Shown one piece after another: positions 44,865 through 63,556 of a stretch of 64,000 nt of DNA. This DNA comes from Verrucomicrobiia bacterium (GTDB lineage Bacteria > Verrucomicrobiota > Verrucomicrobiia > Chthoniobacterales > UBA6821), in contig JBEIJN010000014.1 of assembly GCA_040380225.1 (NCBI GenBank), positions 1,995 to 65,994 of the forward strand, in the 5' to 3' direction. Positions within the stretch are counted from its first letter, which is position 1; the number at the start of each line of letters is the position of its first letter. The translations under genes and the position numbers were made by a program. The notes below the pieces were generated by a model, which saw only the letters and a program-made list of their open reading frames with translations, made no database searches and was not told where the DNA came from.

Positions 44865-44866
44865 GG

Positions 44867-46021
44867 TCAGCTTGCTGGAAGGAAGGATCGAATCCGAGAC
44901 GCGATTTTCCTGCCCACGGCATCCCATGTAAACTCTTTCTCCACCATCGTCCTTCCGGCGCTTCCCATGACGCGCGCCCGGTCCTGATCCTGCAAGAGGG
45001 CGACAATGGCAGAGGCAAACTCCTCCGTATTCCTGGGATCAACAAGCCGGCCGGTCACCCCATCCCTCACACGCTCGGCCCCTGCTCCGAAGGGCGTGGT
45101 GATCACCGGCAACCCGTAGGCGGCGGCATCCAGCGCCAGCATACTTGCCCGCTCCACGCGACTCGGGACACTGACAAGGGCTGCCTTGCGAAAGAGCTGG
45201 TCCAACTCCCCGAGCCTCACCCTTCCGAAAACCCTCATCCCTTCCTGAGCACTCCGAGGCTGTGCTCCAACCACCCAGAGTTCCGCGGAGGGTATCTTCT
45301 GCCGGACTCTTTTGAATGCAGCAGCGAGTTCCTCTCCTCCCTTGATCCCCCAATCCGCTCCGACAAATAGAATCACGGGTTCGGGCGTTGAGGCAGACTC
45401 CTCCAGAAGCGGCAGATCCATGTTGATCCCGGTGGAAACTGTCAGCACTCGTTCCTCGGGAATCCCGTAATCCAAGACGACTGACTTTTCGCAGAAACGA
45501 CTCAGGGTGAAGACCGTCGCCGCCTTCGGGTAAAGAGCAGCTTCTAATCTTATCCATTCTGGTGATGCCGGCGCCGGCGATCCCCCGCCCGGTTGGCGTT
45601 TGTGCGCCTCGCGGGTGTGATCCGTATAGATGAAGAATGGGATTCCCGGATGCGAGGCATCAAACATCGACTGCGTCTGGAAAATGAAAGAGACCCGGGA
45701 AGGATCAATATTCCGCAGGATCCACAACGAGATCAGATCCCATGCCTTCGGTTCCTGGAAAACAAAATCCCAAGGGCTGTGCCTTCCCCGGAGGAGCGGC
45801 ACCAACCGCTTCATGGAGGCCTTGCAGCACAGCCACAGTGAGTGTAACGGAAAGGATGACAGAATATCGCGCGCCGCATCCACGACTTCCAGCTCACACT
45901 CAGGAAACCGCTCCCTCAGCACCCTCTCCATCTTCGCGTTCACGTGTGAGAACGATCCGTATTTGACGAAGATGATCCGATTCGGAATTCCACCGCCAAG
46001 AGGAGAGGATGATGAGTTCAT
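44867..46021 (-). CDS. Glycosyltransferase family 4
   Basis: 384 aa. VSVPSRVERASMLALDAAAYGLPVITTPFGAGAERV. Confidence 0.7.
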   Translation of the reverse strand: MNSSSSPLGGGIPNRIIFVKYGSFSHVNAKMERVLRERFPECELEVVDAARDILSSFPLHSLWLCCKASMKRLVPLLRGRHSPWDFVFQEPKAWDLISLWILRNIDPSRVSFIFQTQSMFDASHPGIPFFIYTDHTREAHKRQPGGGSPAPASPEWIRLEAALYPKAATVFTLSRFCEKSVVLDYGIPEERVLTVSTGINMDLPLLEESASTPEPVILFVGADWGIKGGEELAAAFKRVRQKIPSAELWVVGAQPRSAQEGMRVFGRVRLGELDQLFRKAALVSVPSRVERASMLALDAAAYGLPVITTPFGAGAERVRDGVTGRLVDPRNTEEFASAIVALLQDQDRARVMGSAGRTMVEKEFTWDAVGRKIASRIRSFLPAS

Positions 46022-47133
46022 TTTGGGGACAAAACGGCTTTCACCGCGTCAACATGCCGTGGCGCGACAACCTCCGTTGCATAATGTTCCAAAAACACAC
46101 GGCGCGACGCATGCGATGCCTCAGCGCGCCATTCATCACTGCGGGCAGTCTCGAATGCCCCACCCCACTCCTTATAGGACTCACAGATCGTAACGGCCGC
46201 CCCCCCCGTGCTCCGATCCCTCACATCCAGATAGCTGGGTTGGGGGCTTGCAATAGCGGGCAGGCCGCAAGCCATCCCCAGAGTGATCTTCCATTCCGTA
46301 TGAGACTGGTTGTACGGGTTCTCCAGAAACCTCGGCGAGATAACTACCCCAGGTTTTTCGGCATACAGCGAGAGCAGATTCTCGATCGACCTGAACCGAT
46401 GGGTTGTGTGGGGCACTGAAGAAAGAAGAGACTCAAGACTCGCCGCAGCAGTGGCGTCCAGGCGACTCACGGCTGATTTCAAATCGCCCGTCACAAGATG
46501 CAGTCTGATCTTCTTTCCCATCGAGCGCATCGCCTCTCCTGCCGCAAGCAGATCGGACGCCTTGTCAGCCATCCCCGACCACCAGACATGGAGTGCGGAA
46601 TCATCGCGCGGGACGGTAGCCTGCGGCGTGGGGATCATTCTCGCGGGAATTTGGTCCGGAACCCAGAAAACGTTAGGATTCCACGCCGCGCAAATTGCTG
46701 TCAGATGACTGGAGGAGGCAATCACGCCGTCCGTCAGGGATGTCATCCTGATTGCTTTTTCCCTCTGCGCCGAGGTTGGTCTTAAATGCCCGGGGAGCGT
46801 CCCTCCCCCCCCTTCGGTGTAGTAATCGACATTGGCCTCGAAGATGACCTTTGTCCCCTTCTCCTTGAGCCTTTCGGCAAAGTCGGCGCATCCGGCCTCC
46901 ATTGACTTAAGAAATACCACCGCGTCGTAACGACGCCAGGGTTTGAAAAGCTCATAGCGCATCCCGAAACCTGGATCACGGTTCACCACCTCCGCAATCC
47001 AGCCAAAGCGCATGAAATTCATGGGGGAGTGCCGGTCCGGCCACCCCGTCAGGAGGTAATGAGGTTTCATACCTCGCATCACCGCTTTCCATTCAGGAAA
47101 ACGACTATTGATGATGAATCCGATCCGCTTCAC
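46018..47133 (-). CDS. Hypothetical GT-B-like glycosyltransferase
   Basis: Likely GTG start at 47133, overlapping the upstream TGA (GTGA). GT-B-like C-terminal half (KITLGMACGLPAIASP). Weak family call. Confidence 0.45.
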   Translation of the reverse strand: MKRIGFIINSRFPEWKAVMRGMKPHYLLTGWPDRHSPMNFMRFGWIAEVVNRDPGFGMRYELFKPWRRYDAVVFLKSMEAGCADFAERLKEKGTKVIFEANVDYYTEGGGGTLPGHLRPTSAQREKAIRMTSLTDGVIASSSHLTAICAAWNPNVFWVPDQIPARMIPTPQATVPRDDSALHVWWSGMADKASDLLAAGEAMRSMGKKIRLHLVTGDLKSAVSRLDATAAASLESLLSSVPHTTHRFRSIENLLSLYAEKPGVVISPRFLENPYNQSHTEWKITLGMACGLPAIASPQPSYLDVRDRSTGGAAVTICESYKEWGGAFETARSDEWRAEASHASRRVFLEHYATEVVAPRHVDAVKAVLSPK

Positions 47134-47933
47134 CTGGCGGGAGACCTCGGAAAGAAGGATCGGATCTCCTTGGTAACCAAGGGGCCCCTGCCGTAACGCT
47201 GCTCCTTGGAGTCCCTCGGTGCTCCGCGTAAGACAAAGGCAATCCAAGCGCGTATGAATCGCAGGACCGGCCATGTGTGACGATCCATGATGCAGTCTCG
47301 ATTCCGGGGATTTTCCGCGTCACGCGACGACCTCCTGACAAAGCATGGATGGAGGCAGCGGAAATCGGCTTCTTCCCAGGAAACCTGCTCATGAAGGTCC
47401 CGGCGAAGACCTTCGTGGTATCCCTCACGGAAAACCACCGTACCCCCATGCATCCGCTCCCGGCAGGGACCATTCCATGCCTTGATGGCATTGAAGTTGT
47501 AGAGTTTCGTCATGCTGCGGCACGGGGGAGCCAGATGACCCTGCGCCCAAGCTTCCCCGACATTGATCCTGCGGACATTGAGGACGTTTCCAAAAATGCA
47601 CCAGTCCTTGTCAAACTCACCCGACTCGAGGCGTCCCCTCATCCGCGAAAGGCCTTCCGGATCGTAAATCTCGTCGCCATCGAATCCGAAGATCCAGGTA
47701 TGGGTTCCGGCATACCCCTCGATCAGATCATGGCTAACAGCGGGCGTCATGACGCTGTGAATTTCGAGCTTGTCACCGAATTCGGTTTTCAACTCCTCAA
47801 GAATTTCAAGAGTGCGATCCGATGACGGCCCCTCCACCGCAATCACCTTGTCGCAGAAGTCGATGGCGTTTCTAAGAACCCTTTCGACATACAGATCCTC
47901 ATCCTTCACCAGAAGAATTCCAATGATTTTCAT
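47130..47933 (-). CDS. GT-A fold glycosyltransferase (GT2-like)
   Basis: MKIIGILLVKDEDLYVERVLRNAIDFCDKVIAVEGPSSDRT, FDGDEIY (DxD-like). Start trimmed from 48023. Confidence 0.55.
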   Translation of the reverse strand: MKIIGILLVKDEDLYVERVLRNAIDFCDKVIAVEGPSSDRTLEILEELKTEFGDKLEIHSVMTPAVSHDLIEGYAGTHTWIFGFDGDEIYDPEGLSRMRGRLESGEFDKDWCIFGNVLNVRRINVGEAWAQGHLAPPCRSMTKLYNFNAIKAWNGPCRERMHGGTVVFREGYHEGLRRDLHEQVSWEEADFRCLHPCFVRRSSRDAENPRNRDCIMDRHTWPVLRFIRAWIAFVLRGAPRDSKEQRYGRGPLVTKEIRSFFPRSPAR

Positions 47934-47982: not shown

Positions 47983-49140
47983 TCACCGACGTTTGCGAAT
48001 CCAATCCCGGCAAGGCATCTCAAAATAGCGGTAGGAAAGATCCGATAATCCGAGAACCACTGCTAGGAGAACCGCAAGATTGATGAGTCCATGCCCGAGT
48101 AGACTTGCGGAGAAATGCTCCTTCCCTATCCGAATCAGGAATACAATCCACCCCATGACAAGAATATGCCACAGATAGATTGAATAGGATCTTTCACCCA
48201 ACCATTGGAAAACCCTGTGCTTGAGGATCCCTGTAATAATGCCGCTGTCATAGGCACTGAAGAGAATGAGTGCCGGGAACGCATAGAGTAGGTACTGGTC
48301 GGGGAGCCCCCCCTGTCTGGTCAGCACTAACACCATCACCACGCCGATCAACACGGCGTCGATGAACGGAAAACGCAGGATGAATGCAGGAATCCTGCGA
48401 AACACGGAACAGAGAAAGAACCCTGCCGCAAAACCCAGGATGCCTTTTGCCAAAAATCGTGATTGCCACTCGAAATCACCCACATGCAGCGGCGGAATCT
48501 TGTAATTCGCCATCCACCATGTGGCGGCCAAGGCAAGGACCGCTGACAGAAACCCGATGCCGCGCCTATCCGCGCACCGTGTGACCAAGAGAACGAGAAG
48601 AGGGAAAACAAAGAGGTAACAGAAGAATTCGACGCTGATCGACCATGCGGGTGAATTCAATGTCTCTCTCCAACCGAAAAGCACACCCGATACCATCGTG
48701 AAGTTGGTGAGTAGGGTGATCGCTGGATTGCCTGTCAGAACCTCCGGTTTATGCCCCCAGATCGCATAAAATGAGAGAGGGGTTAGAAAGGGAAGCAAGG
48801 TGAGATAATACAGCGGCATGATACGACCAATGCGTGCACGGAGATATGAAGACCAAACGATGGGGCGATCCCGGCCGACATAAACCCAGTTGAGGATGAA
48901 CCCGCTCAGCATGAAAAACAGAAGGACAGCCTGATAACCCCAGTTGAAGAGCGAGAACCAACGGACATCCAGCCCCCAGTCGGTCAGGATGCCGTTTTTT
49001 GCCTGACCTCCCACATGCCCCAGAAAGACGCTCATGGCAGCGATTCCACGGAGCGCCGTGTGGGACTGGATTTCCGACCCGGGCCTCTTGGGCGCGGGTG
49101 CCCGCAATCCTTGGAAAAAACCAGCCATGCCGCCGCTCAC
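47983..49140 (-). CDS. Membrane O-acyltransferase, acyltransferase-3 (AT3) family
   Basis: 385 aa, about 10 TM. ALRGIAAMSVFLGH, FFMLSGF, AWSISVEFFCY, SYSIYLWH. Confidence 0.75.
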   Translation of the reverse strand: MSGGMAGFFQGLRAPAPKRPGSEIQSHTALRGIAAMSVFLGHVGGQAKNGILTDWGLDVRWFSLFNWGYQAVLLFFMLSGFILNWVYVGRDRPIVWSSYLRARIGRIMPLYYLTLLPFLTPLSFYAIWGHKPEVLTGNPAITLLTNFTMVSGVLFGWRETLNSPAWSISVEFFCYLFVFPLLVLLVTRCADRRGIGFLSAVLALAATWWMANYKIPPLHVGDFEWQSRFLAKGILGFAAGFFLCSVFRRIPAFILRFPFIDAVLIGVVMVLVLTRQGGLPDQYLLYAFPALILFSAYDSGIITGILKHRVFQWLGERSYSIYLWHILVMGWIVFLIRIGKEHFSASLLGHGLINLAVLLAVVLGLSDLSYRYFEMPCRDWIRKRR

Positions 49141-50168: not shown

Positions 50169-52097
50169 TTACGGCATGACGGTTCGGTCGAGATAAGTGA
50201 CGTGATCTTTCACATACCCTTTGCGGAGATGGGCCTTGTCGAACCGGATGGGACCCTGCTCGTTCTCCTGGATGCACCAACCGTCGATGCACAGAAAATC
50301 AAGTGGATCGATCACCTCGGCACCGTTTGCCAGTGCAACACGTTTCATGTCCTTCCTTGAAATGAAGTCGCCGATTCCATTCAGGAACTCCTCCCGGCTC
50401 ACGGGAACGGGCCTGCTGATGCTGATGCCGGTGAAGGTCCTGGTGATGAAGTGACGTGGATCGAAGACATCGCCATTCGGGACGCTCAGCACCAGCACCA
50501 CCTCCTTGCCCTGCTCGTGTAGCGATCGAATAAGGGCTCCGAGGGCAGCGATAGCCTCGTTCTCACCTATCGGGGTCGCCAGAGAGTGACCGTTGATCTC
50601 AAACTTGCTTCCTTTCTTAAAATAAGGATCCCAGTTGGCAGCAATCACCACCCGTCGGATCAATGGGTTCTCCTGAAGCACGCCCATAAGACGGCCCATT
50701 GCAATCGCGGTGGTTTTTATTGGATCGATCACCCCGGGAATGGGTGGGCGACCGCCGGATCCCAGCATCAATACTCCTGTGTTTTTATCTTTGAGCCCGT
50801 TCACCACGATCCGGATGCGCGGCGCGTAATGCCACATGTTGCTGTCGCCAAGGTAAAGGGTTCGGATCTCCTTCCCACCAACCCTGCAGAGGTAGACATT
50901 CCCTTGAGTATCAGTCTCCCAACCATCGAAAAACCCTTGGTTTTTGGTGGCAAAAGCCACCTGCTCAATCCTTGCGGTCGTCGTCGGATAGATCCCCTTT
51001 CTCCAGATGATCCAACCGAAGATACCGGCAATGAGGAAGGATGCCACGAGCAACCAAAAAACAGCACGGGATCTCGTGTGGCGGAGCGGTTTCTCGATGA
51101 GATAGTAGGTGAAAATCGTCAGTACGAGTGCGACTCCCAAAGCCATCCAGATAACACCGGGCGGAGGATTGGTACCTTTGACAATATGCAGGAATGACAA
51201 GGCAGGCCAATGGAAGAGATAGAGCGGATAGCTGATCAGGCCGATCCAGACTATCGCCGGATAGGAAAGGAAGAAACGGTTGAACCAAGCTCCTTTTCCT
51301 CCCTCCATCACCAGAACCGTCCCGCATACTGGCAACAAGGCCCTCCATCCCGGATAGAAGGCATCCTCGTGAATGAAGGCAAAACCTGCCGCGAGCAGAA
51401 GTACTCCAACAAAGGATAAAAGATGCCTGTGTACCGGCACATCCTCCTCGTGCCCCCTTTCAAAGTGCCACCATGCCAGAAGCGAACCTCCGAGAAATTC
51501 CCATGACCTCCATGGGGTGAGGAAAAAAGCGGCGGAACCGCTTATGCGGGATATCAGGAGATTTCCGATCAACGAGGCCAGAAACAGCCCCCCCAGAACT
51601 CGGGCCATCGGCCAGCGTTTTCTGGCAACAAGGAGAAGCAGCGGGGGGAAGAAAATGTAGAACTGTTCTTCCACAGCCAGCGACCAGAGATGCAGGAGTG
51701 GCTTCGTGTCAGCCGCAGTATCGAAGTAACCGCACTCCTGCCAGAAGACGATGTTCTGGATAAAGACAGCTCCAGCCGCGACATGCTTCCCAAGTTGTTC
51801 GTATTCCCCCCGGAGCAGCACGAAGAACCCATAGGCAAGACAGAGTCCTAGTACTGCCACCAGCGAGGGAAAGAGGCGGCGAACCCGGCGCGCATAAAAC
51901 TCGGAAAAGCTGAAATCACCCGCCTTTACACCCTTGTAAAGGATCCCGCTGATCAGATAGCCGGAAATCACGAAGAAAATGTCCACACCGGTGAATCCTC
52001 CGGGCAACGCCTTGGGAAAGGCATGATAGACAATCACGCCGAGCACGGCGACAGCCCTCAGGCCATCGATGTCGGGGCGGTATCGCAGAGAGGTCAT
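50169..52097 (-). CDS. AT3-SGNH fused O-acyltransferase (OafA/YrhL-like), paralog 1
   Basis: 642 aa. YRPDIDGLRAVAVLGVIVYHAF, VDIFFVISGYLIS, LWSLAVEEQFYIFFP, ISYPLYLFHWP. C-terminal extracytoplasmic domain with LGDSNMWHY (SGNH block I-like). Confidence 0.8.
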   Translation of the reverse strand: MTSLRYRPDIDGLRAVAVLGVIVYHAFPKALPGGFTGVDIFFVISGYLISGILYKGVKAGDFSFSEFYARRVRRLFPSLVAVLGLCLAYGFFVLLRGEYEQLGKHVAAGAVFIQNIVFWQECGYFDTAADTKPLLHLWSLAVEEQFYIFFPPLLLLVARKRWPMARVLGGLFLASLIGNLLISRISGSAAFFLTPWRSWEFLGGSLLAWWHFERGHEEDVPVHRHLLSFVGVLLLAAGFAFIHEDAFYPGWRALLPVCGTVLVMEGGKGAWFNRFFLSYPAIVWIGLISYPLYLFHWPALSFLHIVKGTNPPPGVIWMALGVALVLTIFTYYLIEKPLRHTRSRAVFWLLVASFLIAGIFGWIIWRKGIYPTTTARIEQVAFATKNQGFFDGWETDTQGNVYLCRVGGKEIRTLYLGDSNMWHYAPRIRIVVNGLKDKNTGVLMLGSGGRPPIPGVIDPIKTTAIAMGRLMGVLQENPLIRRVVIAANWDPYFKKGSKFEINGHSLATPIGENEAIAALGALIRSLHEQGKEVVLVLSVPNGDVFDPRHFITRTFTGISISRPVPVSREEFLNGIGDFISRKDMKRVALANGAEVIDPLDFLCIDGWCIQENEQGPIRFDKAHLRKGYVKDHVTYLDRTVMP

Positions 52098-52108: not shown

Positions 52109-54046
52109 TTAGGGAGCAACGGTAAAATCGAGGTACATCAACTTATCCCTGACATATCCCGGACGGAGGTGCGTAGCATCATAGCGGATGGGACCATCAG
52201 TATCTTCGGCGATACACATGCCGTCCACGCAAAGGTAATCCATAGGGTCAATTACCTCCGCTCCGTTTCTTCGTGCCACCGCAGCGATCTCGGACAAGAA
52301 ATCCCCCCTATCTTCAAGAAACTCCTTCACAGTCAGTCGACCCGCCGAACAGCTGCGAACCCCAGTGAAATCCCTTGCGAAAAAACTTTTTGGATCGAGC
52401 AGATCACCCGACGGCACGCTTAGCACAAGCGTGACTTGTTTCCCGGACAGCGCAAAATTGTTTATTTCGCGCCCCAAATCCTCAAGGGCAGTTTTTCTTC
52501 CATTCACGCCGCTCATGGGTTGCCCTTGATGCAAGTATTTTGAGTGATCCATGAAATAGGCATGCCAGCGAGCTGCTATCACCACACGGTCAATTCTTGG
52601 ATCAGAGTTCAGTACCTCATGGATCTTTGGCATCAACGCCACACACCTTGGTTTTGCGGGATGGGTTACGCGGGGAATCGGGGGAACCCCGACAGATGTC
52701 AGAAAAAGAGCCCCCCTTGCCGGATTGGCAGACTGTTTAGTCAAGAGCCTCAATATTCGCGGTGCATACTGCTGGGCATTACTGTCGCCGATATAGAGTG
52801 TCTGCGGCCCTTCCCCTCCAGCATGGTTGAAGCTAAAGAGTTGAGCATCACCCAAGCACTGCAATCCCGCCAGCGAATCATGATCGCGCGTTGCCGTCAC
52901 ACACTTCTGAACATCGCCTGAAACCGATATTGCTGGGATCCAACCCCTGAAAATCGCCCAACCAGCAAATCCCAAGAGAAGGTAGATCAGGATGAGAGTG
53001 GGCAACACCCGGGCGGACATGCAGTACCTGATCTTTTTCTCAACGAGATAGTAAGTGATGAGCGTCAGCGCGAAGGCAACTCCCAAGGCCATCCAGATAA
53101 GTTCCGGCTCAGGATTCGCACCTTTGACGATGTGAAGGAACGACAATGCCGGCCAGTGGAAGAGGTAGAGGGGATAGCTAATTAGCCCCACATACACCAT
53201 TGCAGGATGGGAAAGGATCCTTCTGTTCACCCAAGCACCGCCGCCCCCCTCGATCACCAGCAGCGTACCCGCTACTGGCAGCAGGGCTCGCCATCCGGGA
53301 TAGGGTTGCGCCTTCGTCAGCAAGATCATGCCTAGCAGCATCAGGATGGCCCCCGCCCAGGAAAGGATCTCCCTGTGCTTTGGCTTCTCCGCATGATGAG
53401 CCCGATCATAGTGCCACCATGCAAGGAGACTTCCTGCCAGGAACTCCCATGCCCGATAGGGCGTCAGGAAGAAGTCTGAGGCTGCACTCTGATACGACAT
53501 CACCACGTTGCCAATGAAGGAACCGATGAGAAGCACGCCCATGATGGCTGCAGGCGGCCACTTCTTTTTCCAGATCAGCAGTAGGAGCGGCGGAAAGAAG
53601 ATATAGAACTGTTCCTCCACCGCAAGCGACCAGAGGTGGAGTAGCGGCTTGAGAATGGCCGCCGTGTCAAAATAACCGCTCTCCTGCCAGAAAACCATAT
53701 TCTGGATAAAGAGAGTTCCTGCCGCCACATGCTTTCCCAGCTTCTCATACTCGTCCGGCAGCAGAATGACCCACCCATAGCCCAGGCAGAGCAGCAGAAC
53801 GGTGATGAGCGAAGGAAAGAGCCTCCTGATACGCCGTGCGTAGAACTCCTTGAAGCTGAAGGGCCCTTCCCTATGACCCTTGTAGAGAATCCCGCTGATC
53901 AGATATCCGCTAATCACGAAGAAGATATCCACCCCGCTGAACCCTCCCGGCAATAACTTCGGGAACGCATGGAAAATGATGACGCCGAGAACCGCCACAG
54001 CCCTTAGGCCATCAATGTCGGGACGGTATCTCAGTGAAACACTCAT
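52109..54046 (-). CDS. AT3-SGNH fused O-acyltransferase, paralog 2 (tandem duplicate)
   Basis: 645 aa. N-terminal AT3 half is highly similar to paralog 1 (same motifs). The C-terminal half (IGDSNAQQY) is clearly more diverged. Confidence 0.8.
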   Translation of the reverse strand: MSVSLRYRPDIDGLRAVAVLGVIIFHAFPKLLPGGFSGVDIFFVISGYLISGILYKGHREGPFSFKEFYARRIRRLFPSLITVLLLCLGYGWVILLPDEYEKLGKHVAAGTLFIQNMVFWQESGYFDTAAILKPLLHLWSLAVEEQFYIFFPPLLLLIWKKKWPPAAIMGVLLIGSFIGNVVMSYQSAASDFFLTPYRAWEFLAGSLLAWWHYDRAHHAEKPKHREILSWAGAILMLLGMILLTKAQPYPGWRALLPVAGTLLVIEGGGGAWVNRRILSHPAMVYVGLISYPLYLFHWPALSFLHIVKGANPEPELIWMALGVAFALTLITYYLVEKKIRYCMSARVLPTLILIYLLLGFAGWAIFRGWIPAISVSGDVQKCVTATRDHDSLAGLQCLGDAQLFSFNHAGGEGPQTLYIGDSNAQQYAPRILRLLTKQSANPARGALFLTSVGVPPIPRVTHPAKPRCVALMPKIHEVLNSDPRIDRVVIAARWHAYFMDHSKYLHQGQPMSGVNGRKTALEDLGREINNFALSGKQVTLVLSVPSGDLLDPKSFFARDFTGVRSCSAGRLTVKEFLEDRGDFLSEIAAVARRNGAEVIDPMDYLCVDGMCIAEDTDGPIRYDATHLRPGYVRDKLMYLDFTVAP

Positions 54047-55122
54047 TCAGATGAAGATGCCCGCTCAATGACGCCGGCCAATCGCTCGGCAAAACCTTGG
54101 GCCGTCCACTTTGCCCCAAGAAGCGCATTCCTCGCGGCAAGCACACTGGATGTCGACATGGTTCCCTGAATCGCCGCCGCAAACTCTTCCGCATTGTCAG
54201 GGCTCACCAGTGAAACTTCTTTCCCGTCGCGAATGACATCGCTCCCCCACCATCCCGAGGTTTTGGTGATGACCACGGGGGCTTCGCACATCATCGCCTG
54301 CATGGCCACACTCTGCCCGGACGGCTGAAGGCTTTCCCTAAGTGGAACCAACACGCACGCGGCCATCTGGTAAAGATCCCGGAGCCCTTCATCGCTTAGC
54401 GCGTTTTCCTTCCAGTCACCACGACGCCAGAGGACATTCTTCGGCAAATTGTCAGGGGCATCCAGACGTGTGACCACGGTGAAGGGAATCGCCGGAAGGA
54501 TCCTTGCCGTCTCCACAAGCGTGGCGTAGTCACGACGACCATCGTTCCCCACGGCAAGAACTCCACTGCGGTTTCCGTCGATAGACGGAGGGATCCAGAA
54601 AGTCTCATCCACTCCAAACCAACCCGATTGGATTTCATCAGCCTCGGGCTTGAAACGCTTCCTGATCTCAGCCTCCTCTGAATCTGCGAAGAGCACGGCC
54701 TGCATCCGGCCCAGCAGTCGGGCGGTGATGATCCTGCGTACCTCTGATCCTATAGGATAATTGACAGCTCCACAGAGAATTCCCGCGAGAGGCTTCTTGA
54801 ACAGGCCCAGTTCTTTCCAAAGAGCCAGACCGAAGGAAATCTCGGTCGCTGTTGCAACCACCACATCGTAGCCCTTCAACTTCGGAAGCAGACGACGCGT
54901 CCGGGCAATCCAATCGGCCGAAGTTCTGGGAGGAACAAGTATGCCCAAGAGCCCCCCTGCGATCAGGCCGGTCAGCGGATCTGCCGGTTCGGCATCCACC
55001 TCGAGGCAATCCACAGTCCATCCGTGGCGAGAGGATAACTCCCTGGCCCCATAAAAGAAATCGGACGGCCCGTCGGTTCCCCGAAGATGCCGTCCGCCAG
55101 CGTAGACAAAGGCAACCTTCAT
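54043..55122 (-). CDS. GT-B fold glycosyltransferase (GT4-like)
   Basis: Start trimmed to MKVAFVYAGG (ATGA overlap with the upstream stop at 55119-55122). LQPSGQSVAMQAMMCEAPVV. Confidence 0.55.
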   Translation of the reverse strand: MKVAFVYAGGRHLRGTDGPSDFFYGARELSSRHGWTVDCLEVDAEPADPLTGLIAGGLLGILVPPRTSADWIARTRRLLPKLKGYDVVVATATEISFGLALWKELGLFKKPLAGILCGAVNYPIGSEVRRIITARLLGRMQAVLFADSEEAEIRKRFKPEADEIQSGWFGVDETFWIPPSIDGNRSGVLAVGNDGRRDYATLVETARILPAIPFTVVTRLDAPDNLPKNVLWRRGDWKENALSDEGLRDLYQMAACVLVPLRESLQPSGQSVAMQAMMCEAPVVITKTSGWWGSDVIRDGKEVSLVSPDNAEEFAAAIQGTMSTSSVLAARNALLGAKWTAQGFAERLAGVIERASSSE

Positions 55123-55955
55123 TTCATTCGGAAGAGCCTCCACCTGATTCCCTCCATAACTTTCCCAATCACCCCCGCCATCCAGGCATCCCATCCGATC
55201 CAGTATCCGAGGCATCGACCGGGCTTGCTCAGAATCCCGAAATGCCTCGGAGAAGCCTCCCTGAGCCTCGGTAGGAATACCCGGGGACTTCCGCTCTTGT
55301 TCAATGAAGCCGACAACGCCTCGTAATCTGGATGCCGCCCGTGGAGGATTTTTACCGACCCCCTTCCCGCGAACGCAGGCATGATGAATCGGAAGTTGTA
55401 TTCGGGAGGCAGAGTCGCGAAGGAAACATCACTCTGCCACAGCGCATCCCTCAGCGACGGTTGGTCATCGATCACGCCGGTGCTCGTGAGTCTTTCCTGA
55501 TAAAGCTTCTCCCAGAGTGAAAAAAGCGAGCGAGTGCGGTCATTCAGATGATAGGCAATCACCCCGCTGTTGCATTCGGGAAAGGTCGGCGGAACCGACG
55601 AGGTTGCGGTAAATCTCATCGGGGCGTGGGCCATGGCGACATCATGCCGATCCAAGATGGCAAACATCTCGGGAACCGGCTCGCAGAGCCATGTATCGGT
55701 ATCGAGAAACACAGTTCTTTCAAATGGCGTCGAAAGAAGCGGCCCGATCTTATCGGAGAAATTAAACTGCGGGTTTGCTATCGCGAGATGATGATCAAAC
55801 AGATCTTTCGGTGGCGATAGATCGGATGCGATCGCTATCGGAACCCCAGGCATCACCGAGCGGATACGCACGGCAGATCGGCATGACTCATCAAGGAATC
55901 TGCGCCCTGTAGCGATAAAGTAAAATCCGGTGGATGATTCCTTCATACTATCCAT
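55119..55955 (-). CDS. GT-A fold, GT8-like nucleotide-sugar transferase
   Basis: Start trimmed to MDSMKESS (TAATG overlap with the upstream stop). FLDTDTW (DxD), CNSGVIAY, DDQPSL. Confidence 0.5.
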   Translation of the reverse strand: MDSMKESSTGFYFIATGRRFLDESCRSAVRIRSVMPGVPIAIASDLSPPKDLFDHHLAIANPQFNFSDKIGPLLSTPFERTVFLDTDTWLCEPVPEMFAILDRHDVAMAHAPMRFTATSSVPPTFPECNSGVIAYHLNDRTRSLFSLWEKLYQERLTSTGVIDDQPSLRDALWQSDVSFATLPPEYNFRFIMPAFAGRGSVKILHGRHPDYEALSASLNKSGSPRVFLPRLREASPRHFGILSKPGRCLGYWIGWDAWMAGVIGKVMEGIRWRLFRMK

Positions 55956-57202
55956 TACCGAGTATTTACACCTCGTCGGAAGTGCCTGTGATAAATCTCC
56001 TTGGCCACGCAGGAAGCCATCCTCGAGACAAACTTGCCGGAAGAGCAACCCTTGGCGACGATTCGGTTCGGGGAGAAAGCTGCGAGAAGAAGCCCAGCCC
56101 CCAACCCTCCGGAAGTTTCATAACCATATTGTGGGAGAAGCTTACCAAAAAGCCCCTCGATGAGGTCTTTTTGCTTATCGCTCAATTCCGATTTCCAGCG
56201 TCCCGACATCTTGGGGCTAACCGTTCCGGAAGCCATCCCATCGGAATCCATTCTCGAAGTATTGGACCCAGCAGAGCGCCCGTAAACCGAGGGAGTGAGA
56301 AGAACCTTGTCAAATCCTATGCCCAGGAACTCAGCGATCCGCTTCATCTCGGCGGAGGTGTTGGCAACGAGATCCTCGTAACGCACGATATGATGAGAAG
56401 CGCTTAGGATTCTGTCGTTTGAAAGTCCAAACCTCATCGAGCTATGGATCGCCTCCATTTCATTGATCAGGGAGAAAGAGCGAAACTTCTTGTGCTGCTT
56501 GCGGGACTGCGCGGCAATGATCGCACCAGGATGACGCACGATGTGCAGGAATTTAGCCTCAGGGAACACTGATGCCAGGCGAAGGGCCTCCTCGGCATTA
56601 CCCGTCGATTTCTCAACCCATCCTTTTTTCACTTGGCCCGAAGGCGCCATCTCCTCCTCGATACTGCAGTATGCCCATGCCATGGCCGAGAGCAGCGACT
56701 CGGAAGAGTCCAAGCCTCTCTTCGTGGTGGCCAGTTCCAGCATCGCGGCGATCCGCGGATAGGCAGCGTGTTCCCTACCCGCAATCCATGTCGGCTCCTC
56801 CCCCGCGATGGGCATCACCAGGGAATGAATCATCGTCTCCAGAAGGGAGGATCGACGGTGTTCCCGCGGGCATTTCATCACAAGATCCATAAATCGGATC
56901 CCATGACCATCGGTTGGTAGCGTGTAAAGCTCAGGATGGCCGTCGAGCAGATTTCTCAAAAGAGTCGTCCCCGACTTGTGGGAGCCGCCGATGAATATCG
57001 GTCTCTGCACGACAGACTCGGGGACAAGCGTGGGATGCAGCCCGGCCGTTGACTGCTCCGCCCGCGCTCTCAGGCTGCTCACCTGATTTCGGAAACGTTC
57101 CGCGGAAGGGTGAGGGGAGACAAGCAGGAATCTCTCGCCGGCGGAGCGGGCTTCATCCAGCGATGCGTCTATATTCTTAAGTGATTGTTCCAGTTCCATC
57201 AT
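55955..57202 (-). CDS. PAPS-dependent sulfotransferase with an N-terminal ~75-aa extension
   Basis: 5'-PSB loop FIGGSHKSGTTLLRNLLDGHP and 3'-PB element FLHIVRHPGAIIAAQS. Confidence 0.75.
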   Translation of the reverse strand: MMELEQSLKNIDASLDEARSAGERFLLVSPHPSAERFRNQVSSLRARAEQSTAGLHPTLVPESVVQRPIFIGGSHKSGTTLLRNLLDGHPELYTLPTDGHGIRFMDLVMKCPREHRRSSLLETMIHSLVMPIAGEEPTWIAGREHAAYPRIAAMLELATTKRGLDSSESLLSAMAWAYCSIEEEMAPSGQVKKGWVEKSTGNAEEALRLASVFPEAKFLHIVRHPGAIIAAQSRKQHKKFRSFSLINEMEAIHSSMRFGLSNDRILSASHHIVRYEDLVANTSAEMKRIAEFLGIGFDKVLLTPSVYGRSAGSNTSRMDSDGMASGTVSPKMSGRWKSELSDKQKDLIEGLFGKLLPQYGYETSGGLGAGLLLAAFSPNRIVAKGCSSGKFVSRMASCVAKEIYHRHFRRGVNTR

Positions 57203-57224: not shown

Positions 57225-58460
57225 TCAGTCCAGCACGATCCGTGCAGGCATGCCCGCAATCATCGGATCACATCCTCCGTGACGCATTGCGCGTGATATA
57301 TTGCCATCTCCATCGCAGATCCAGTTTTCGGCGGCTCCGGCTTTGGACAAGAGACCGATGTTTTTGAATATCTGCTCCTCGCTGGTGTCATGGGATTTCA
57401 TATGGACGCAGATTTCGGGAGCTCCCGAGTATGCGGGCAGGCGACATAGAGTGGAACGCCGCGCTTCCGAGATCCAAGCCACATCGGCGACGCGAACACC
57501 ATCCCCGGTCTCGATCGGCACATCGACCAGCACATGCCCGCCCTGCAGCGACCGGGCCAGAAGCGAGCTGATAGCACCGACCATTTCGGCACGTCTCGAT
57601 CCCGTACCTGCTGAAAAATGCGATGCGCCGTGAAGATGAAGCCCCTCCGTGTAGAAGTCCGCCGCCTCCAGCGCGGGCGCATCGCAGACCACCCTTCCTT
57701 GCTGCAGGACGATGGCCCGGTTGCAGAGTTGCTTCACACTCTCGGCGGCATGACTCACGAAGAGAATCGTCACCCCTGAGTTCTTCGTCGCCTCGATCTT
57801 CTCAAGGCACTTCTCCTGGAACGCCGCATCCCCCACGGCCAGCACTTCGTCGAGGATCAGGATCTCCGGATCCAGATGAGCCGCCACGGAGAATGCCAAC
57901 CGGACTCGCATGCCGCTAGAGTAACGCTTGACCGGCGTGTCCATGAACTTCTCGATCTCGGCAAAGGAAAGGATCTGGTCATAGCGATCATCGATTTCCT
58001 TCTTTTTTAGCCCAAGGATACTTCCGTTGAGATAGACATTCTCCCTGCCGGTGAGCTCCTGGTGAAATCCGGTTCCCACCTCCAGGAGACTTGCCACGCG
58101 CCCCTTCATGTATGCTTTTCCCTCGGTGGGAGCAGTTATCCTGGAGAGAAGCTTCAACAGCGTGGACTTGCCGGAGCCATTGCGCCCCATGATTCCCACG
58201 ATGTCACCTTGATGGACTTCAAAGCTTATATTCTTCAGAGCCCAGAAGTCATAGGCCTCCGGCAAGCTGTCCGTATTCTGTTCATGGACACGGCTATTGG
58301 GGTCTGTTTTTCCCAGCTTCCTTGAGACATAGCTCTCGATCTGATCGACCAGCATCTTCCGGGTGATCACCCCCAGGCGGTATTTTTTGGAAAGGCCCTC
58401 GGCACGAATCACGCACTCCTTAAGTGCATTATTCGATATTGTTAATTGGTCATTATGCAT
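57225..58460 (-). CDS. wzt: Polysaccharide ABC exporter ATP-binding protein (Wzt/TagH-like) with an atypical C-terminal domain
   Basis: Walker A GRNGSGKST, signature YSSGMRVRLAFS, Walker B ILILDEVLAVGD. The C-terminal ~135 aa resemble the Uma2/DUF820 fold (see findings). Confidence 0.85.
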   Translation of the reverse strand: MHNDQLTISNNALKECVIRAEGLSKKYRLGVITRKMLVDQIESYVSRKLGKTDPNSRVHEQNTDSLPEAYDFWALKNISFEVHQGDIVGIMGRNGSGKSTLLKLLSRITAPTEGKAYMKGRVASLLEVGTGFHQELTGRENVYLNGSILGLKKKEIDDRYDQILSFAEIEKFMDTPVKRYSSGMRVRLAFSVAAHLDPEILILDEVLAVGDAAFQEKCLEKIEATKNSGVTILFVSHAAESVKQLCNRAIVLQQGRVVCDAPALEAADFYTEGLHLHGASHFSAGTGSRRAEMVGAISSLLARSLQGGHVLVDVPIETGDGVRVADVAWISEARRSTLCRLPAYSGAPEICVHMKSHDTSEEQIFKNIGLLSKAGAAENWICDGDGNISRAMRHGGCDPMIAGMPARIVLD

Positions 58461-58564: not shown

Positions 58565-59422
58565 CTACGCCGTATCCACGCTCGTCTGCTCGACTTTGTT
58601 GAAGACGATCAACCCCAGAAAAAGGATCCCGATGCTCAGTGTTGCGCTGATCACGACCTGCCCGAAGGTAACGGTCCCCTGCCCCATGAATGCGCATCGA
58701 AATGCCTCGATCACAAAGACAATCGGGTTCCAATCATACATCCATCGGTAGCTCTCAGGAACCACCTTCAGTGGATAGACCACACAGCTTGCGTACATCC
58801 AGAGCTGCATAAAGAAACCAAGCAGCACCTGGAGATCTCGAAACCTGCTTGTCACTCCAGAAATCAGGCAACCCACCCCCAGACCGAGTGCAGCCATCTG
58901 GATGATGAGTACCGGTAATACGATGATCCTCCAGTCAAGGCGGATAGGCGCCCCGTGGAAGTAAAACCAGAGATAGAACGCAAAGAAGAGGACTAATCCC
59001 ATGGCCAGTCCCACGAGATTGGTGATCAGTTGGGAGATCGGCACGGCCAATCGCGGAAAGTAGACTTTATCGAACATTCCTTGGTTCGAGGTGAAGGTGT
59101 TCGCCGTCTTGGTCACACACTCAGAGAAATACCTCCAGCAGACCGTTCCGGAGAGATAGAAGAGAATCGGCGGAATTTCCCCAGTGGAGATCTTGGCAAC
59201 CCTTGTGAAGACCAGCACGAACATAAGGCTCTGCAGCAGCGGCTGCAGCACATACCAGAAGGATCCCAGAACCGTCTGCTTATACTGGGAGACGAAGTCC
59301 CTGTGGGCCATCAGCCCGATCATCTCCCGGTAGTCCCAGAGTTCCTTGAAGGGGATGTACAGGAGATTACGCCGGGGAGTGATGACCGTAGTCCAGGATT
59401 CGGAAGTTGAAGATGAGGACAT
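58565..59422 (-). CDS. wzm: ABC-2 type polysaccharide exporter permease (Wzm/KpsM/TagG-like)
   Basis: 285 aa, 6 TM. ELWDYREMIGLMAHRDFVSQYKQTVLGSFWYVLQPLL, NPIVFVIEAFR. Confidence 0.8.
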   Translation of the reverse strand: MSSSSTSESWTTVITPRRNLLYIPFKELWDYREMIGLMAHRDFVSQYKQTVLGSFWYVLQPLLQSLMFVLVFTRVAKISTGEIPPILFYLSGTVCWRYFSECVTKTANTFTSNQGMFDKVYFPRLAVPISQLITNLVGLAMGLVLFFAFYLWFYFHGAPIRLDWRIIVLPVLIIQMAALGLGVGCLISGVTSRFRDLQVLLGFFMQLWMYASCVVYPLKVVPESYRWMYDWNPIVFVIEAFRCAFMGQGTVTFGQVVISATLSIGILFLGLIVFNKVEQTSVDTA

Positions 59423-59536: not shown

Positions 59537-59971
59537 TCAAATCACGCAAAGATTTTTCTCTTCCGCATCGTTCACTGCAGAAATGGGAATTTTTGTATCA
59601 AATGTCACGAGTCGCCCCTGGCGAGACACTGCCAATCCTAGCAGGTAAAGATCCGTTAAATATCGTGAACTATGAATGCGCTCGCATGCAAAGATGGCTT
59701 TGTTCCGAAGGGAAATGGAATCACCCCAAAATTCATGATCCGTCGAATCGACGAACTGGCGCATCTGGCCGATCAGATCACCGGGCAAGAACTGCATTGT
59801 CCGGCTGTATCCGGGATTGGACATGATGCGTACAGCTCCGTTTTCCGTGAGCGGACAACTGGCCCATCCATCCCCTCCATGCATTGCCCACCAACCATGC
59901 GCCCTCTCGTGAAATGAATGATCCGGATCAAAGAGCGCAATGATCACATTGATATCCAACAATGCCCGCAT
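59537..59971 (-). CDS. vapC: PIN-domain toxin VapC
   Basis: 144 aa. MRALLDINVIIALFDPDH, CPLTENG, YLTDLYLLGLAVSRQGRLVTFD. Confidence 0.8.
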   Translation of the reverse strand: MRALLDINVIIALFDPDHSFHERAHGWWAMHGGDGWASCPLTENGAVRIMSNPGYSRTMQFLPGDLIGQMRQFVDSTDHEFWGDSISLRNKAIFACERIHSSRYLTDLYLLGLAVSRQGRLVTFDTKIPISAVNDAEEKNLCVI

Positions 59972-61674: not shown

Positions 61675-62817
61675 TTAATTTCCCAACTCCCCTCCATCCA
61701 AAAATCGTGTGCCCTTTTCCAAGTCCATCACAATTGGCTCGGCATCCTTGTAACGCTGACAAAAGCGCTCCAGACCCCCCATGCGTTTCACTCTGCCTGA
61801 TTTCACTTCGATCGCCACAATGCCACGTTGGGTTTTTACAACGAAATCCACCTCGGCGCCACCCTCTCGCCAATACATGACCTCATCATAGCGCCGACAG
61901 AGTTCGGCACCCACCCCGCACTCAAAAAGCCGACCCTTCCATTCGATATCTTGATCGAGCGGAAAAGAATCCCTCTGGGCATTCACCAGCGCCGTATTGA
62001 GCGGGACGATTTTGGGGCTCGATCCCCGCTTTTTTATCTCCGATCCGCTATATTTTTGTAATACCTTGATCAGAAAAGCCCCCTCGAACAGTTCGAGATA
62101 ATGCTTGATTGTAGTTACATTCCCTGACTCCTGCAATTGCCCCAGCAGCTTTTGAAGGGAAATCTCCATTGCAGGATAGGCGAGGCACAACTGAAACGCC
62201 TGCCGGAAAAGAGCCGGCTTGTTCACGACGGCCAGCGACAACAAATCCCGCAGCAGAACCGGCTCAATAATCGAATGGTTGATAAAATCTCTCCACCGGG
62301 AGAAATCCCCAGTGAGTTCCGCCGCCGCCGGATACCCGCCGAATTTTAGAAACTCCTTCAAGCCCCATCCAAAAGCCTCGCGACACTCCGGCAAGCTCCA
62401 GTGTCCTGCGTGAATGACCTCGTAACGACCCGCTAGGCTCTCAGCCATTCCCTTCTGCATCAGCAGGCTGGCCGAGCCTAGCAAAACCACCTTCAAACTA
62501 CGAGATTCGCGATCCTCATCGAAAAGCCTCTTCACTCGCTCACTCCAGCCCGGCACTTTCTGAATCTCATCGATCACCAGCAAAGCCCCCTCACCCATGC
62601 CCCGCGAGATTTTCCAGTTCAACTCGATCCAATCTGCAGTAGGTGGTGCCACCTCATCAGCCGAGGCCAAATGCACAGGCCCCTTCCATCTCTGGGCAAT
62701 TTGTCGGAGCCCCGTGGTCTTTCCCACCTGGTGCGGCCCAGTGACGACCTGAATAAAGTTCAGCCTCTCCTGCAAACGAACTTCTAATTTTTTGCTAAAA
62801 TCACGAAAAAATTGCAT
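61675..62817 (-). CDS. AAA ATPase with a DUF4143-type C-terminal domain
   Basis: 380 aa. P-loop VTGPHQVGKTT, Walker B LLVIDEIQ, C-terminal nuclease-fold-like GAEVDFVVKTQRGIVAIEVKSGR. Confidence 0.7.
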   Translation of the reverse strand: MQFFRDFSKKLEVRLQERLNFIQVVTGPHQVGKTTGLRQIAQRWKGPVHLASADEVAPPTADWIELNWKISRGMGEGALLVIDEIQKVPGWSERVKRLFDEDRESRSLKVVLLGSASLLMQKGMAESLAGRYEVIHAGHWSLPECREAFGWGLKEFLKFGGYPAAAELTGDFSRWRDFINHSIIEPVLLRDLLSLAVVNKPALFRQAFQLCLAYPAMEISLQKLLGQLQESGNVTTIKHYLELFEGAFLIKVLQKYSGSEIKKRGSSPKIVPLNTALVNAQRDSFPLDQDIEWKGRLFECGVGAELCRRYDEVMYWREGGAEVDFVVKTQRGIVAIEVKSGRVKRMGGLERFCQRYKDAEPIVMDLEKGTRFLDGGELGN

Positions 62818-63175: not shown

Positions 63176-63556
63176 TCAGTTGCCAGCTTTCGGGAAAAAG
63201 CGTACGGCAGGAAGGTCTTCAAAGTGGCGATCTTGAGTCCATAAGTCCGCATCCACACTCAAAGAGGATGCATAGACCAGCGCGTCGGCCATAGCCAACT
63301 TGTGCCGGCAAGCTATCTCCGCCGCTGCATCTGCAATGGCATCATCGACGTGCAACTGATCGAACTTGGCAAGCACGCACACTGCCATTTCGCGGCCTGC
63401 CTCCCCCTTGTGAGTCAGCGTATAGCGGCCGACTTCATACCGAACAACCGCAGGTACGAAAAGCTGCTCAGCTTGAAGAGCAGGCTCAAACAAGCCGGCT
63501 CGATCTGAACCTGCCAAAAGCTCTATCCACCCGGAGCTATCGAGAACAACCCTCAT
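63176..63556 (-). CDS. vapC: PIN-domain toxin VapC
   Basis: 126 aa. MRVVLDSSGWIELL, AMADALVYASS, LWTQDRHFEDL. 4-nt overlap with the antitoxin. Confidence 0.8.
   Translation of the reverse strand: MRVVLDSSGWIELLAGSDRAGLFEPALQAEQLFVPAVVRYEVGRYTLTHKGEAGREMAVCVLAKFDQLHVDDAIADAAAEIACRHKLAMADALVYASSLSVDADLWTQDRHFEDLPAVRFFPKAGN

Follow-up and report, generated by a model that had tools for sequence, protein, structure and literature searches.

The locus considered here raises the question of what a sulfotransferase gene does directly behind the genes of an ABC exporter. It lies in a window of 64,000 nucleotides (the whole stretch of DNA that was analysed), which also contains the gene of an MlaA lipoprotein, a marker of diderm bacteria. 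The glycan cluster occupies positions 39125 to 61668. On the minus strand, the operon reads GT2, wzm, wzt, ST415 (the sulfotransferase under study), p278 (a GT-A), GT4, two AT3-SGNH genes, further glycosyltransferase genes and ST291. A preliminary description of this DNA had placed a sulfotransferase at positions 55955 to 57202 and had likened it to the WbdD-type terminators, which rely on a coiled-coil ruler. Indeed, an intact frame of 415 aa fills exactly these coordinates, on the minus strand. The gene had also been located immediately upstream of wzt; the adjacency was borne out but the direction was not, because wzt and ST415 are both read from the minus strand, which puts ST415 directly downstream (3') of wzt, after a gap of 22 nt. 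At its other end, the stop codon of ST415 overlaps the start of p278 (TAATG). No compositional sign of a recent insertion of ST415 was seen, its GC content being 55.5% versus 53-58% in the neighbouring genes, and 100% identical copies are present in two other samples.

The exporter is composed of Wzm, an ABC-2 permease of 285 aa with five hydrophobic segments (58565 to 59422, minus strand; Pfam ABC2_membrane, 4.8e-20), and Wzt, the ABC-transporter ATPase of 411 aa (57225 to 58460, minus strand), in which Pfam ABC_tran covers residues 75-206 (7.7e-24) and whose NCBIfam matches are TagH and galactan Wzt/RfbE-type. On the other side of ST415, p278 (278 aa; 55119 to 55955, minus strand) yielded no Pfam match itself, and a sequence search against solved structures was also empty; it was assigned to the GT-A-fold glycosyltransferases because the precomputed Pfam domains of its homologs are PF03407 or PF01501 and because it contains a DxD-like LDTDT motif. 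These homologs are labelled Chthoniobacterales or Terrimicrobiaceae. The p278 gene accompanies ST415-like genes in five out of five clade loci. It is followed by GT4_359, a GT4 glycosyltransferase of 359 aa (54043 to 55122, minus strand; Pfam Glyco_trans_1_4), which is part of the conserved core of the cluster and is 60-84% identical across related loci.

The nature of the enzyme is the first point to be settled. ST415 matched Pfam Sulfotransfer_3 (PF13469) over residues 68-298 with 95.7 bits (cutoff 27, E=6.3e-27) and Sulfotransfer_1 (PF00685) with 31.9 bits (cutoff 22, E=1.2e-7). The 5'-phosphosulfate-binding loop, FIGGSHKSGTTLLRNLLDGHP, spans residues 70-90 (56933 to 56995, minus strand) and provides the Lys of the motif GGSHK76SGTT, and the 3'-phosphate-binding element, FLHIVRHPGAIIAAQS, spans residues 218-233 (56504 to 56551, minus strand) and provides the Arg of IVR223HP. 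Two homolog alignments were used, A1 with 27 sequences and A2 with 90. In A1, residues F70, G73, K76, S77, G78, T79, L85, L86, D87 and H89 do not vary, and R223 is invariant or almost so. In A2, conservation reaches 90% or more at K76, S77, G78, T79 and T80, R223 never varies and P225 hardly does. When the AF2 model (pLDDT 88.3, pTM 0.89) was compared with the PDB by Foldseek, the top 35 matches were all sulfotransferases, including TPST2 (3ap2, 1.2e-8), 4gox, 2z6v and 4gbm, and the nearest solved folds are those of TPST2, OLS/CurM and Stf9. Judged by family, motifs and predicted fold (Pfam, AF2 and Foldseek), ST415 is a PAPS-dependent sulfotransferase, and the claim that the locus encodes a second enzyme of this type stands, since the Pfam match, both PAPS motifs and the fold agree. 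It belongs to an ordinary enzyme type, and within it to a rare long-form subfamily of 400-440 aa; the relatives found in a genome-contig scan are at most 31% identical and all lack its N-terminal extension. None of the scanned ORFs of the window was recognised as a gene for PAPS synthesis.

The other sulfotransferase of the operon, ST291 (44052 to 44927, minus strand; Pfam Sulfotransfer_1, 3.3e-8), belongs to the conserved core, and it is syntenic and 76-88% identical in three related loci (L087-L089), all without ST415. It had been said that the two enzymes show no likeness beyond their motifs, and BLASTP between them gave the same picture, aligning the 3'-PB element only (12/34 identities, E=0.01). 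The short wzt-adjacent sulfotransferases of L003 and L005 were considered as orthologs of ST291 or ST415 and rejected, their BLASTP similarity (E of 0.01 or worse) being at motif level only.

The feature that had invited the comparison with chain terminators is the N-terminal extension of ST415, described as coiled and about 75 aa long. In the AF2 model it is helical, as proposed, but shorter (residues 1-66; 57005 to 57202, minus strand), and it forms a two-helix hairpin with a loop rather than a continuous coil: two 19-residue helices (2-20 and 32-50) flank a loop that reads VSPHPSA here and is conserved as F-x-x-V-S-x-x-P-S-A, and an ordered non-helical stretch (51-66) leads on to the core. 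The preliminary description had staked its proposal on the conservation of this extension in orthologs, and both its presence and its length are kept (62-91 aa in the long-form homologs), with an identity of 14-31%, compared to 30-48% for the core. The pLDDT is 88-97 throughout, and since it reaches 97 even in the non-helical residues 51-66, the model suggests that the extension is integrated with the globular domain, its short alpha-hairpin and ordered linker being part of the enzyme proper. This architecture is a hallmark of the 400-440-aa ST415 subfamily; it may cover the substrate as a lid, mediate oligomerisation or dock a partner.

WbdD of E. coli O8/O9a and K. pneumoniae O3/O5 and WbbB of K. 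pneumoniae O12 are chain terminators. A terminator of the WbdD type would have the extension of ST415 oligomerise as a coiled coil, space the sulfotransferase from the polymerase and set the chain length. The adjacency to wzt and the conserved length of the extension agree with this, as does a heptad-like hydrophobic stripe on each helix (LLILA and AFVLA), although each stripe comprises only about 2.5 heptads. However, each helix measures some 28 Å (about 3 nm), versus approximately 200 Å (about 20 nm) for the coiled-coil ruler of WbdD (PMC5082667), and no helix of the ST415 model exceeds 27 residues. In addition, the Pro-containing conserved loop splits the helices, the high pLDDT of the extension and the pTM of the model fit a compact protein, and a crude home-made heptad scorer, calibrated on GCN4 and tropomyosin, gave the extension a value of 0.50, compared to 0.71-0.79 for true coiled coils (0.79 for GCN4). 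Nor did a crude, uncalibrated heptad scan of the other cluster proteins reveal an extended coiled coil, no score exceeding 0.53.

The genomic distribution of the extension also speaks against a ruler, as it occurs in homologs from four clusters without wzt within 10 kb, and ST415 itself is missing from the nearest relatives of the present cluster. The four wzt-free clusters are rich in glycosyltransferase and sulfotransferase genes, and two of them possess genes for PAPS synthesis as well, a hint at polymers with multiple sulfates. A further discrepancy concerns topology: the ruler of WbdD and WbbB separates the catalytic module from the end that binds the membrane or polymerase, whereas in ST415 the candidate membrane helix follows the catalytic domain directly, at the other (C) terminus. 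This basic helix (residues 388-414; 55961 to 56041, minus strand), modelled by AF2 at a low-confidence pLDDT of 47-68, has a net charge of +5. All long-form homologs have such a tail, of 43-68 aa, which is only 4-20% identical in those with less than 50% core identity. The helix predicted for ST415 may serve as a membrane or partner anchor and may hold the enzyme at the membrane. On the basis of AF2 helix lengths, the conserved Pro loop and the heptad score, the coiled-coil ruler was discarded, and we consider a WbdD-type function for the extension very improbable.

A cap could also be recognised by the exporter itself. In characterised systems, capped glycans are accompanied by an extra C-terminal domain on Wzt (PMC11231755), and such a domain does exist here (residues 291-411; 57228 to 57590, minus strand). 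However, it is not the carbohydrate-binding module that is the hallmark of capped systems. The domain has no Pfam match, Wzt_C included, at E<=10, and a canonical Wzt carbohydrate-binding module was found neither by Pfam at relaxed thresholds nor among the significant Foldseek matches. Its phmmer matches are PF05685-annotated Uma2 proteins (5e-14 to 2e-10), and the AF2 model (pLDDT 82) retrieved 9y1l, 1wdj (TT1808), 3ot2 (DUF820) and 6okh as the top Foldseek matches (1e-7 to 1e-5), that is, a Uma2/DUF820 restriction-endonuclease-like fold. With the Uma2/DUF820 proteins (PF05685; TT1808, Ava_3926) it shares the DGVRVADVAWIS and GAPEICV motifs; in contrast to standalone Uma2 proteins, the Wzt copies are fused to an ABC-transporter NBD and show two additions, a basic motif (ARRSTLxR) that never varies and a C-terminal segment that does. 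Because all fused copies carry His in place of the conserved Uma2 Glu (PEICVE to PEICVH), and because the domain falls below Pfam detection, we regard it as a divergent Uma2 relative that is probably no nuclease.

Whether ST415 is an obligatory partner of this exporter can be judged from related loci. The same fused Wzt occurs without ST415 in six of them (L088, L089, L100, L104, L105 and L107), contrary to what would hold for a terminator on which the exporter depends. The two closest clusters, L088 and L089, keep the neighbouring genes in order, with identities of 97% for PIN, 88-91% for Wzm, 78-79% for Wzt, 70-72% for p278, 76-84% for GT4_359 and 79-88% for ST291, but they lack ST415, and in both wzt is followed directly by p278 after a gap of about 24 nt. 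They are also without the three AT3 genes of the window. Since the nearest clusters retain the neighbours and not ST415, we take ST415 to be an accessory, variable decoration gene. Across 24 loci with the fused Wzt, at least seven different types of gene come first after wzt; a recombination hot spot for modification genes sits directly 3' of wzt. The substrate, in turn, is suggested by the company that such genes keep, as all 10 independent contexts examined for ST415-like genes are glycosyltransferase-rich polysaccharide clusters. The reading that we favour, with a probability of about 0.6, is that ST415 is an accessory, strain-variable sulfotransferase that decorates the lipid-linked polysaccharide before its export by Wzm/Wzt.

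Three observations count against plain decoration. Wzt has the extra C-terminal domain, a sulfotransferase gene comes directly behind every wzt with a type A variable segment (described below), and ST415 and p278 diverge fastest between related loci (42-45% identity, compared to 60-80% for their neighbours), as expected of specificity-determining terminal enzymes. In a second interpretation, a cap works without a ruler. ST415 would sulfate the non-reducing end of the finished chain, possibly on a residue that the co-translated GT-A p278 has attached, and the Uma2-like domain of Wzt, through residues 354-388, would read that end and license export, by analogy with the WbdD and WbbB caps that are read by the carbohydrate-binding module of Wzt. 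The translational coupling of ST415 and p278 is compatible with this, and the conservation of the extra Wzt domain together with its Glu-to-His change suggests a repurposing away from catalysis.

The most pertinent evidence comes from the variable segment itself (57297 to 57401, minus strand), which in the window is of type A (MKSHDTSEEQIFKN...) and co-varies with the downstream gene. Among the 24 fusion loci, which are related by descent and not phylogenetically independent, and in which fewer than 200 nt separate the segment from the end of wzt, a type A segment is followed by a sulfotransferase directly after wzt in all 13 cases and a type B segment in two out of nine. The sulfotransferases behind type A belong to three unrelated families (short ST258, ST301 and ST415). 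The tree of the segment is incongruent with that of the NBD, on which types A and B are intermixed, implying at least two independent associations between segment and sulfotransferase. The window itself illustrates this mosaic, for its NBD is closest to ST415-free loci (90-91%), whereas its Wzt C-domain is closer to ST415-bearing loci (71% versus 65-66%). The segment tracks the sulfotransferase and not the NBD phylogeny, and there may accordingly be a special tie to export. This sequence co-variation lends circumstantial support to the idea that the exporter reads a sulfate, but it may also stem from physical linkage: recombination with a crossover in the strongly conserved DNA that encodes PEICVH would yield such a pattern with no function behind it, and the two type B loci with a sulfotransferase after wzt (L101 and L102) do not follow the rule.

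Other facts weigh on the same side. The cluster contains neither a coiled-coil protein nor a canonical carbohydrate-binding module, ST415-type enzymes with the same extension are found away from any exporter, and we know of no glycan-binding domain with a nuclease fold. No sulfate cap in ABC-dependent O-antigen systems was found in the literature covered, to which Mann et al. 2019 (Glycobiology 29:822), reportedly a census of terminator chemistries, did not belong. A precedent for the gene arrangement does exist in Aeromonas salmonicida, where a sulfotransferase gene is located between wzt and wbbB (PMC4483657). Taken together, a sulfate cap without a ruler seems to us rather unlikely, and its most specific version, a rare class of Wzt in which a degenerate Uma2 domain has replaced the carbohydrate-binding module, the 35-residue segment reads a sulfate-containing feature made by whichever sulfotransferase fills the slot behind wzt and sulfation licenses export, is unlikely.

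The hot spot also admits a third interpretation, as the slot after wzt takes many unrelated genes. ST415 could have been inserted at a permissive operon junction and act on another substrate, for instance a small molecule, a sugar of the core or of lipid A, or a primer or adaptor linked to lipid. Among its best structural neighbours are enzymes whose acceptors are not polysaccharides (protein tyrosine for TPST, acyl intermediates for OLS/CurM, glycolipids for mycobacterial Stf), and there is a weak match to NoeE, the Nod-factor sulfotransferase (2.7e-6). Nevertheless, the polysaccharide clusters in which all 10 contexts of ST415-like genes are found, and the tight packing and translational coupling of ST415 with a glycosyltransferase, argue for a glycan, and we regard this option as improbable.

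Under the preferred reading, accessory decoration, ST415 is most likely a cytoplasmic PAPS-dependent O-sulfotransferase that would sulfate the undecaprenyl-diphosphate-linked polysaccharide, and the Wzm/Wzt ABC transporter would then export the decorated product. The gene fills the hot-spot slot 3' of wzt within otherwise conserved glycan clusters of uncultured Gram-negative bacteria, and as a strain-variable modification gene it resembles the three AT3 O-acyltransferases that are likewise specific to the window. In this scheme we infer the lipid-linked glycan as substrate, the sulfated position and what the two terminal appendages do. Bacterial polysaccharide sulfation is poorly characterised beyond cyanobacteria and rhizobia; ST415 adds an example to it and marks out a rare subfamily of long-form sulfotransferases whose N-terminal hairpin is conserved. 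Of wider value are the post-wzt recombination hot spot and an exporter ATPase that carries a nuclease-fold domain in the place of the carbohydrate-binding module. If this domain did read a sulfated glycan, the paradigm of cap recognition in ABC-dependent O-antigen export would gain a new chemistry as well as a new fold, and length control by a coiled-coil ruler would be no necessary companion of capping.

Comparison with known systems places ST415 among several models. It shares with TPST1/2, OLS/CurM and Stf the Pfam family Sulfotransfer_3 and the PAPS-binding core (Foldseek E=1e-8 to 2e-5, target-normalised TM 0.37-0.63), but the identity is only 15-22%, the hairpin is unmatched (query-normalised TM 0.33-0.45), and the genomic context and, likely, the substrate are different. 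The WbdD and WbbB systems resemble the present one in the ABC-dependent pathway, in a non-glycosyltransferase modifying enzyme encoded beside wzm/wzt and in the extra C-terminal domain of Wzt. In contrast, ST415 has no extended coiled coil and none of the kinase, methyltransferase or Kdo-transferase chemistry, the Wzt domain is Uma2/PD-(D/E)XK-like instead of a beta-sandwich carbohydrate-binding module, and the most closely related clusters do without the enzyme. WbdD has a C-terminal membrane-associating helix (PMC11231755), to which the predicted basic C-terminal helix of ST415 bears a partial likeness. In the wb cluster of Aeromonas salmonicida, ORF19 encodes a 216-aa protein with a sulfotransferase domain between wzt and wbbB, and no sulfate is reported in the known O-antigen structure of this organism (PMC4483657). 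Compared by description, the two loci have in common a sulfotransferase gene right after wzt in an ABC-dependent O-antigen cluster, but ORF19 is much shorter and without the N-terminal extension, and its cluster possesses a canonical coiled-coil terminator, WbbB.

The polysaccharide-modifying PAPS sulfotransferases form the last group. Rhizobial LpsS and KpsS are enzymes of this kind, encoded in EPS, CPS or LPS clusters. XssA and XssE, which act on the synechan of Synechocystis, are others (PMC8205485). ST415 is similar to both pairs in its cytoplasmic PAPS-type fold, in its location in a glycosyltransferase-rich surface-polysaccharide cluster and in the presence of several sulfotransferase subfamilies per cluster, and it differs from them in its long form, which has an alpha-hairpin at the N terminus and a basic tail at the C terminus, and in its position in a variable slot after wzt.

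The gene for ST415, a 415-residue PAPS-type sulfotransferase, occupies positions 55955-57202 of the minus strand, where its translation is intact; the plus-strand translation of the same interval is riddled with stops. The enzyme class assigned in the preliminary description was confirmed by Pfam (Sulfotransfer_3, E=6.3e-27, residues 68-298, and also Sulfotransfer_1), by conserved motifs and by the predicted fold. Both motifs quoted there were located (residues 70-90 and 218-233); among 27 and among 90 aligned homologs, the KSGTT of the P-loop-like element and the IVRHP Arg show little or no variation. The larger alignment yielded a high-confidence AlphaFold2 (AF2) model (pLDDT 88.3, pTM 0.89), for which every top-ranking solved structure is a sulfotransferase (TPST2 at 1.2e-8, the OLS and CurM domains, and Stf9/Stf1). 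Near the C-terminus, a basic helix (388-414, net charge +5) modelled at low pLDDT may anchor ST415 to the membrane or to a partner. The proposed lack of similarity to ST291, the other sulfotransferase of the cluster (44052-44927, minus strand), beyond these motifs also held, the BLASTP alignment being confined to the 3'-PB stretch (E=0.01).

ST415 had been placed upstream of wzt, the gene for the exporter ATPase; on the minus strand, however, it lies 22 nt downstream of it. The gene belongs to a long minus-strand polysaccharide cluster extending to 39125, which begins, in transcription order, with an AAA_14/DUF4143 ATPase, a GT2 glycosyltransferase, a PIN toxin, wzm (the exporter permease, 58565-59422), wzt (57225-58460), ST415 and p278 (a 278-residue protein, 55119-55955), followed by a GT4 glycosyltransferase, two AT3-SGNH acyltransferases, glycosyltransferases and a third AT3, ST291 and further glycosyltransferases. 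Elsewhere in the window, the presence of an MlaA lipoprotein gene points to a diderm organism. The start of p278 overlaps the stop of ST415 (TAATG), to which it is translationally coupled; its translation begins at ATG 55955, and the listed 309-residue ORF, which opens at TTG 56048, reaches too far upstream. Pfam gave no match for p278 itself, which contains an LDTDT (DxD-like) motif; judging by the PF03407 or PF01501 domains of its homologs, it is a divergent GT-A-fold glycosyltransferase. It occurs much more widely than ST415, with 148 homologs, of which many reach 60-90% identity. Toxin-antitoxin or defence-type genes, including PIN and AAA_14/DUF4143, lie at 59537-59971, 61675-62817 and 63176-63556 (minus strand), and others (HepT/NTP_transf_2, AbiEii, Fic, 23S_rRNA_IVP) are found within or beside the glycan clusters of relatives (L003, L005, L088, L089; the L numbers denote related loci).

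Comparison with such loci revealed how variable the position behind wzt is. The nearest relatives of the cluster, L088 and L089, share genes in the same order (Wzm 88-91% identity, full-length Wzt 78-79%, p278 70-72%, GT4_359 76-84%, ST291 79-88%, GT4_374 81-91%, and PIN, 59537-59971, 97% in L088 only). Neither cluster contains ST415 or any of the three AT3 genes, and in both p278 starts about 24 nt past the wzt stop; ST415 is therefore accessory, and the slot it fills is variable. In a clade at 40-45% identity (L003/4, L005/6, L082), the order wzm-wzt-(short sulfotransferase)-long sulfotransferase-...-p278 recurs, and in L083 the long sulfotransferase and p278 are present on a contig without wzt. 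A metagenome scan with the C-terminal domain of Wzt added 18 loci in which this domain is fused; across all fusion loci, the first gene after wzt encodes a short Sulfotransfer_1 protein, a 301-residue sulfotransferase, ST415, a distant short sulfotransferase, a GT8-like protein, an unknown 242-residue protein or p278. A 227-residue protein in the variable region (L090:1198-1881, L098, L099:3375-4058) matches Sulfotransfer_2 weakly (E=0.003; its motif is KFIFIKNRKVAGSS), so that in some loci up to three kinds of sulfotransferase lie no further than 3 kb from wzt. The AT3 genes (47983-49140, 50169-52097 and 52109-54046, minus strand; two are AT3-SGNH fusions) are, like ST415, missing from the otherwise syntenic L087-L089, forming a second strain-specific decoration set. 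A 418-residue protein (46018-47274, minus strand) without TM segments or any Pfam match is kept in L087-L089 (60-79% identity) at the same position, between GT2-like and GT4 genes, and may be a divergent GT-B.

The N-terminal extension of ST415 had been described as about 75 residues long, helical and coiled. A helical extension does exist in the AF2 model, but it spans about 66 residues and contains two short helices (2-20 and 32-50) separated by a loop; the residues from there to strand 68-73 are ordered but not helical (pLDDT 88-97 over the whole region). The loop bears an F-x-x-V-S-x-x-P-S-A motif conserved subfamily-wide. As anticipated, the extension is conserved: all long-form homologs (400-440 residues, 30-48% core identity) keep 62-91 residues of it, at 14-31% identity, including those of clusters without wzt within 10 kb (L007, L084, L085, L086), and short-form relatives (about 330 residues) are devoid of it. 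A heptad-like hydrophobic stripe runs along each helix for only about 2.5 heptads (about 28 Å), and a crude heptad score gave 0.50, compared to 0.79 for GCN4 and 0.71 for tropomyosin. In the chain terminator WbdD, the catalytic domains are kept about 200 Å away from the membrane by the ruler, an extended coiled coil made of three chains (PMC5082667; PMC11231755). In contrast, the ST415 extension is about 7 times shorter, proline-interrupted and predicted to lie within a compact protein. Because of these features, and of its presence in homologs without a nearby wzt, the suggested coiled-coil ruler was rejected, and a full WbdD-like terminator is highly improbable. We favor, with a probability of roughly 60%, that ST415 is an accessory PAPS-dependent glycan sulfotransferase decorating the lipid-linked polymer, which it would modify ahead of Wzm/Wzt export, its N-terminal hairpin being subfamily-specific. 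That its substrate is something other than the polymer appears improbable.

About 140 residues of Wzt lie beyond its nucleotide-binding domain (NBD). A Wzt_C carbohydrate-binding module was ruled out here, since the C-domain (57228-57590, minus strand, residues 291-411) matched nothing in Pfam, Wzt_C included, even at E<=10. It is instead homologous to small Uma2 (PF05685) proteins (5e-14 to 2e-10), with which it shares the motifs DGVRVADVAWIS and GAPEICV, and its AF2 model (pLDDT 82) matches the restriction-endonuclease-like DUF820/Uma2 structures 9y1l, 1wdj, 3ot2 and 6okh. The Glu of the Uma2 PEICVE sequence is His in every fused Wzt copy, and the fused domains have gained an invariant basic motif, ARRSTLxR. 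Among 1.84 billion representative proteins, 310 relatives were found, nearly all standalone (100-230 residues) and only a handful fused to an ABC ATPase. One protein, P0349 (699 residues), joins a Uma2 domain (residues 19-124) to a GT4 glycosyltransferase domain, which hints at repeated recruitment of Uma2-fold domains into glycan-assembly proteins or, alternatively, at a gene-calling artefact.

Within this domain, 35 residues (354-388; 57297-57401, minus strand) vary between two types, counted in the window and in loci L003, L005, L082 and L088-L107. With type A (KSHxTxxxExFKN..., the form present in the window), the next gene after wzt encodes a sulfotransferase in 13/13 loci, these enzymes coming from three unrelated families; with type B (LPGxDRxExEIHxT, nearer to standalone Uma2), this occurs in 2/9. 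Such a pattern may reflect a reader domain co-adapted to a sulfated substrate, as expected if ST415 added a terminal cap that is recognized by the Uma2-like domain and licenses export with no ruler involved. Alternatively, recombination within wzt may account for the same pattern: a crossover in the strongly conserved DNA that encodes PEICVH would move the last 200 nt of wzt together with the downstream cassette. The NBD tree mixes types A and B: the window, together with L092 (both type A), is sister to L088, L089, L104 and L105 (type B), and a second type A clade is sister to type B loci L100-L103; the tree of the variable segment splits cleanly into A and B and is incongruent with it. Likewise, the NBD of the window is 90-91% identical to L088/L089 and only 80% to L003/L005, and its C-domain 65-66% and 71%, respectively. 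Since the sample is small and phylogenetically non-independent, this sequence association is considered a lead and not evidence of function. Export dependent on a sulfate cap, without a ruler, is conceivable but seems unlikely. The literature searched, outside of which lay the census of Mann et al. 2019, described no sulfate cap in ABC-dependent systems.

Known capped-glycan systems have two hallmarks, a coiled-coil terminator and a Wzt with a carbohydrate-binding module (PMC11231755). With no ruler in ST415 and a Uma2-like domain in Wzt, the cluster has neither of them in its known form. Aeromonas salmonicida also has an unexplained sulfotransferase gene adjoining wzt (PMC4483657), and a sulfotransferase inside a polysaccharide cluster is an already-known kind of arrangement, to which ST415 adds a further example.
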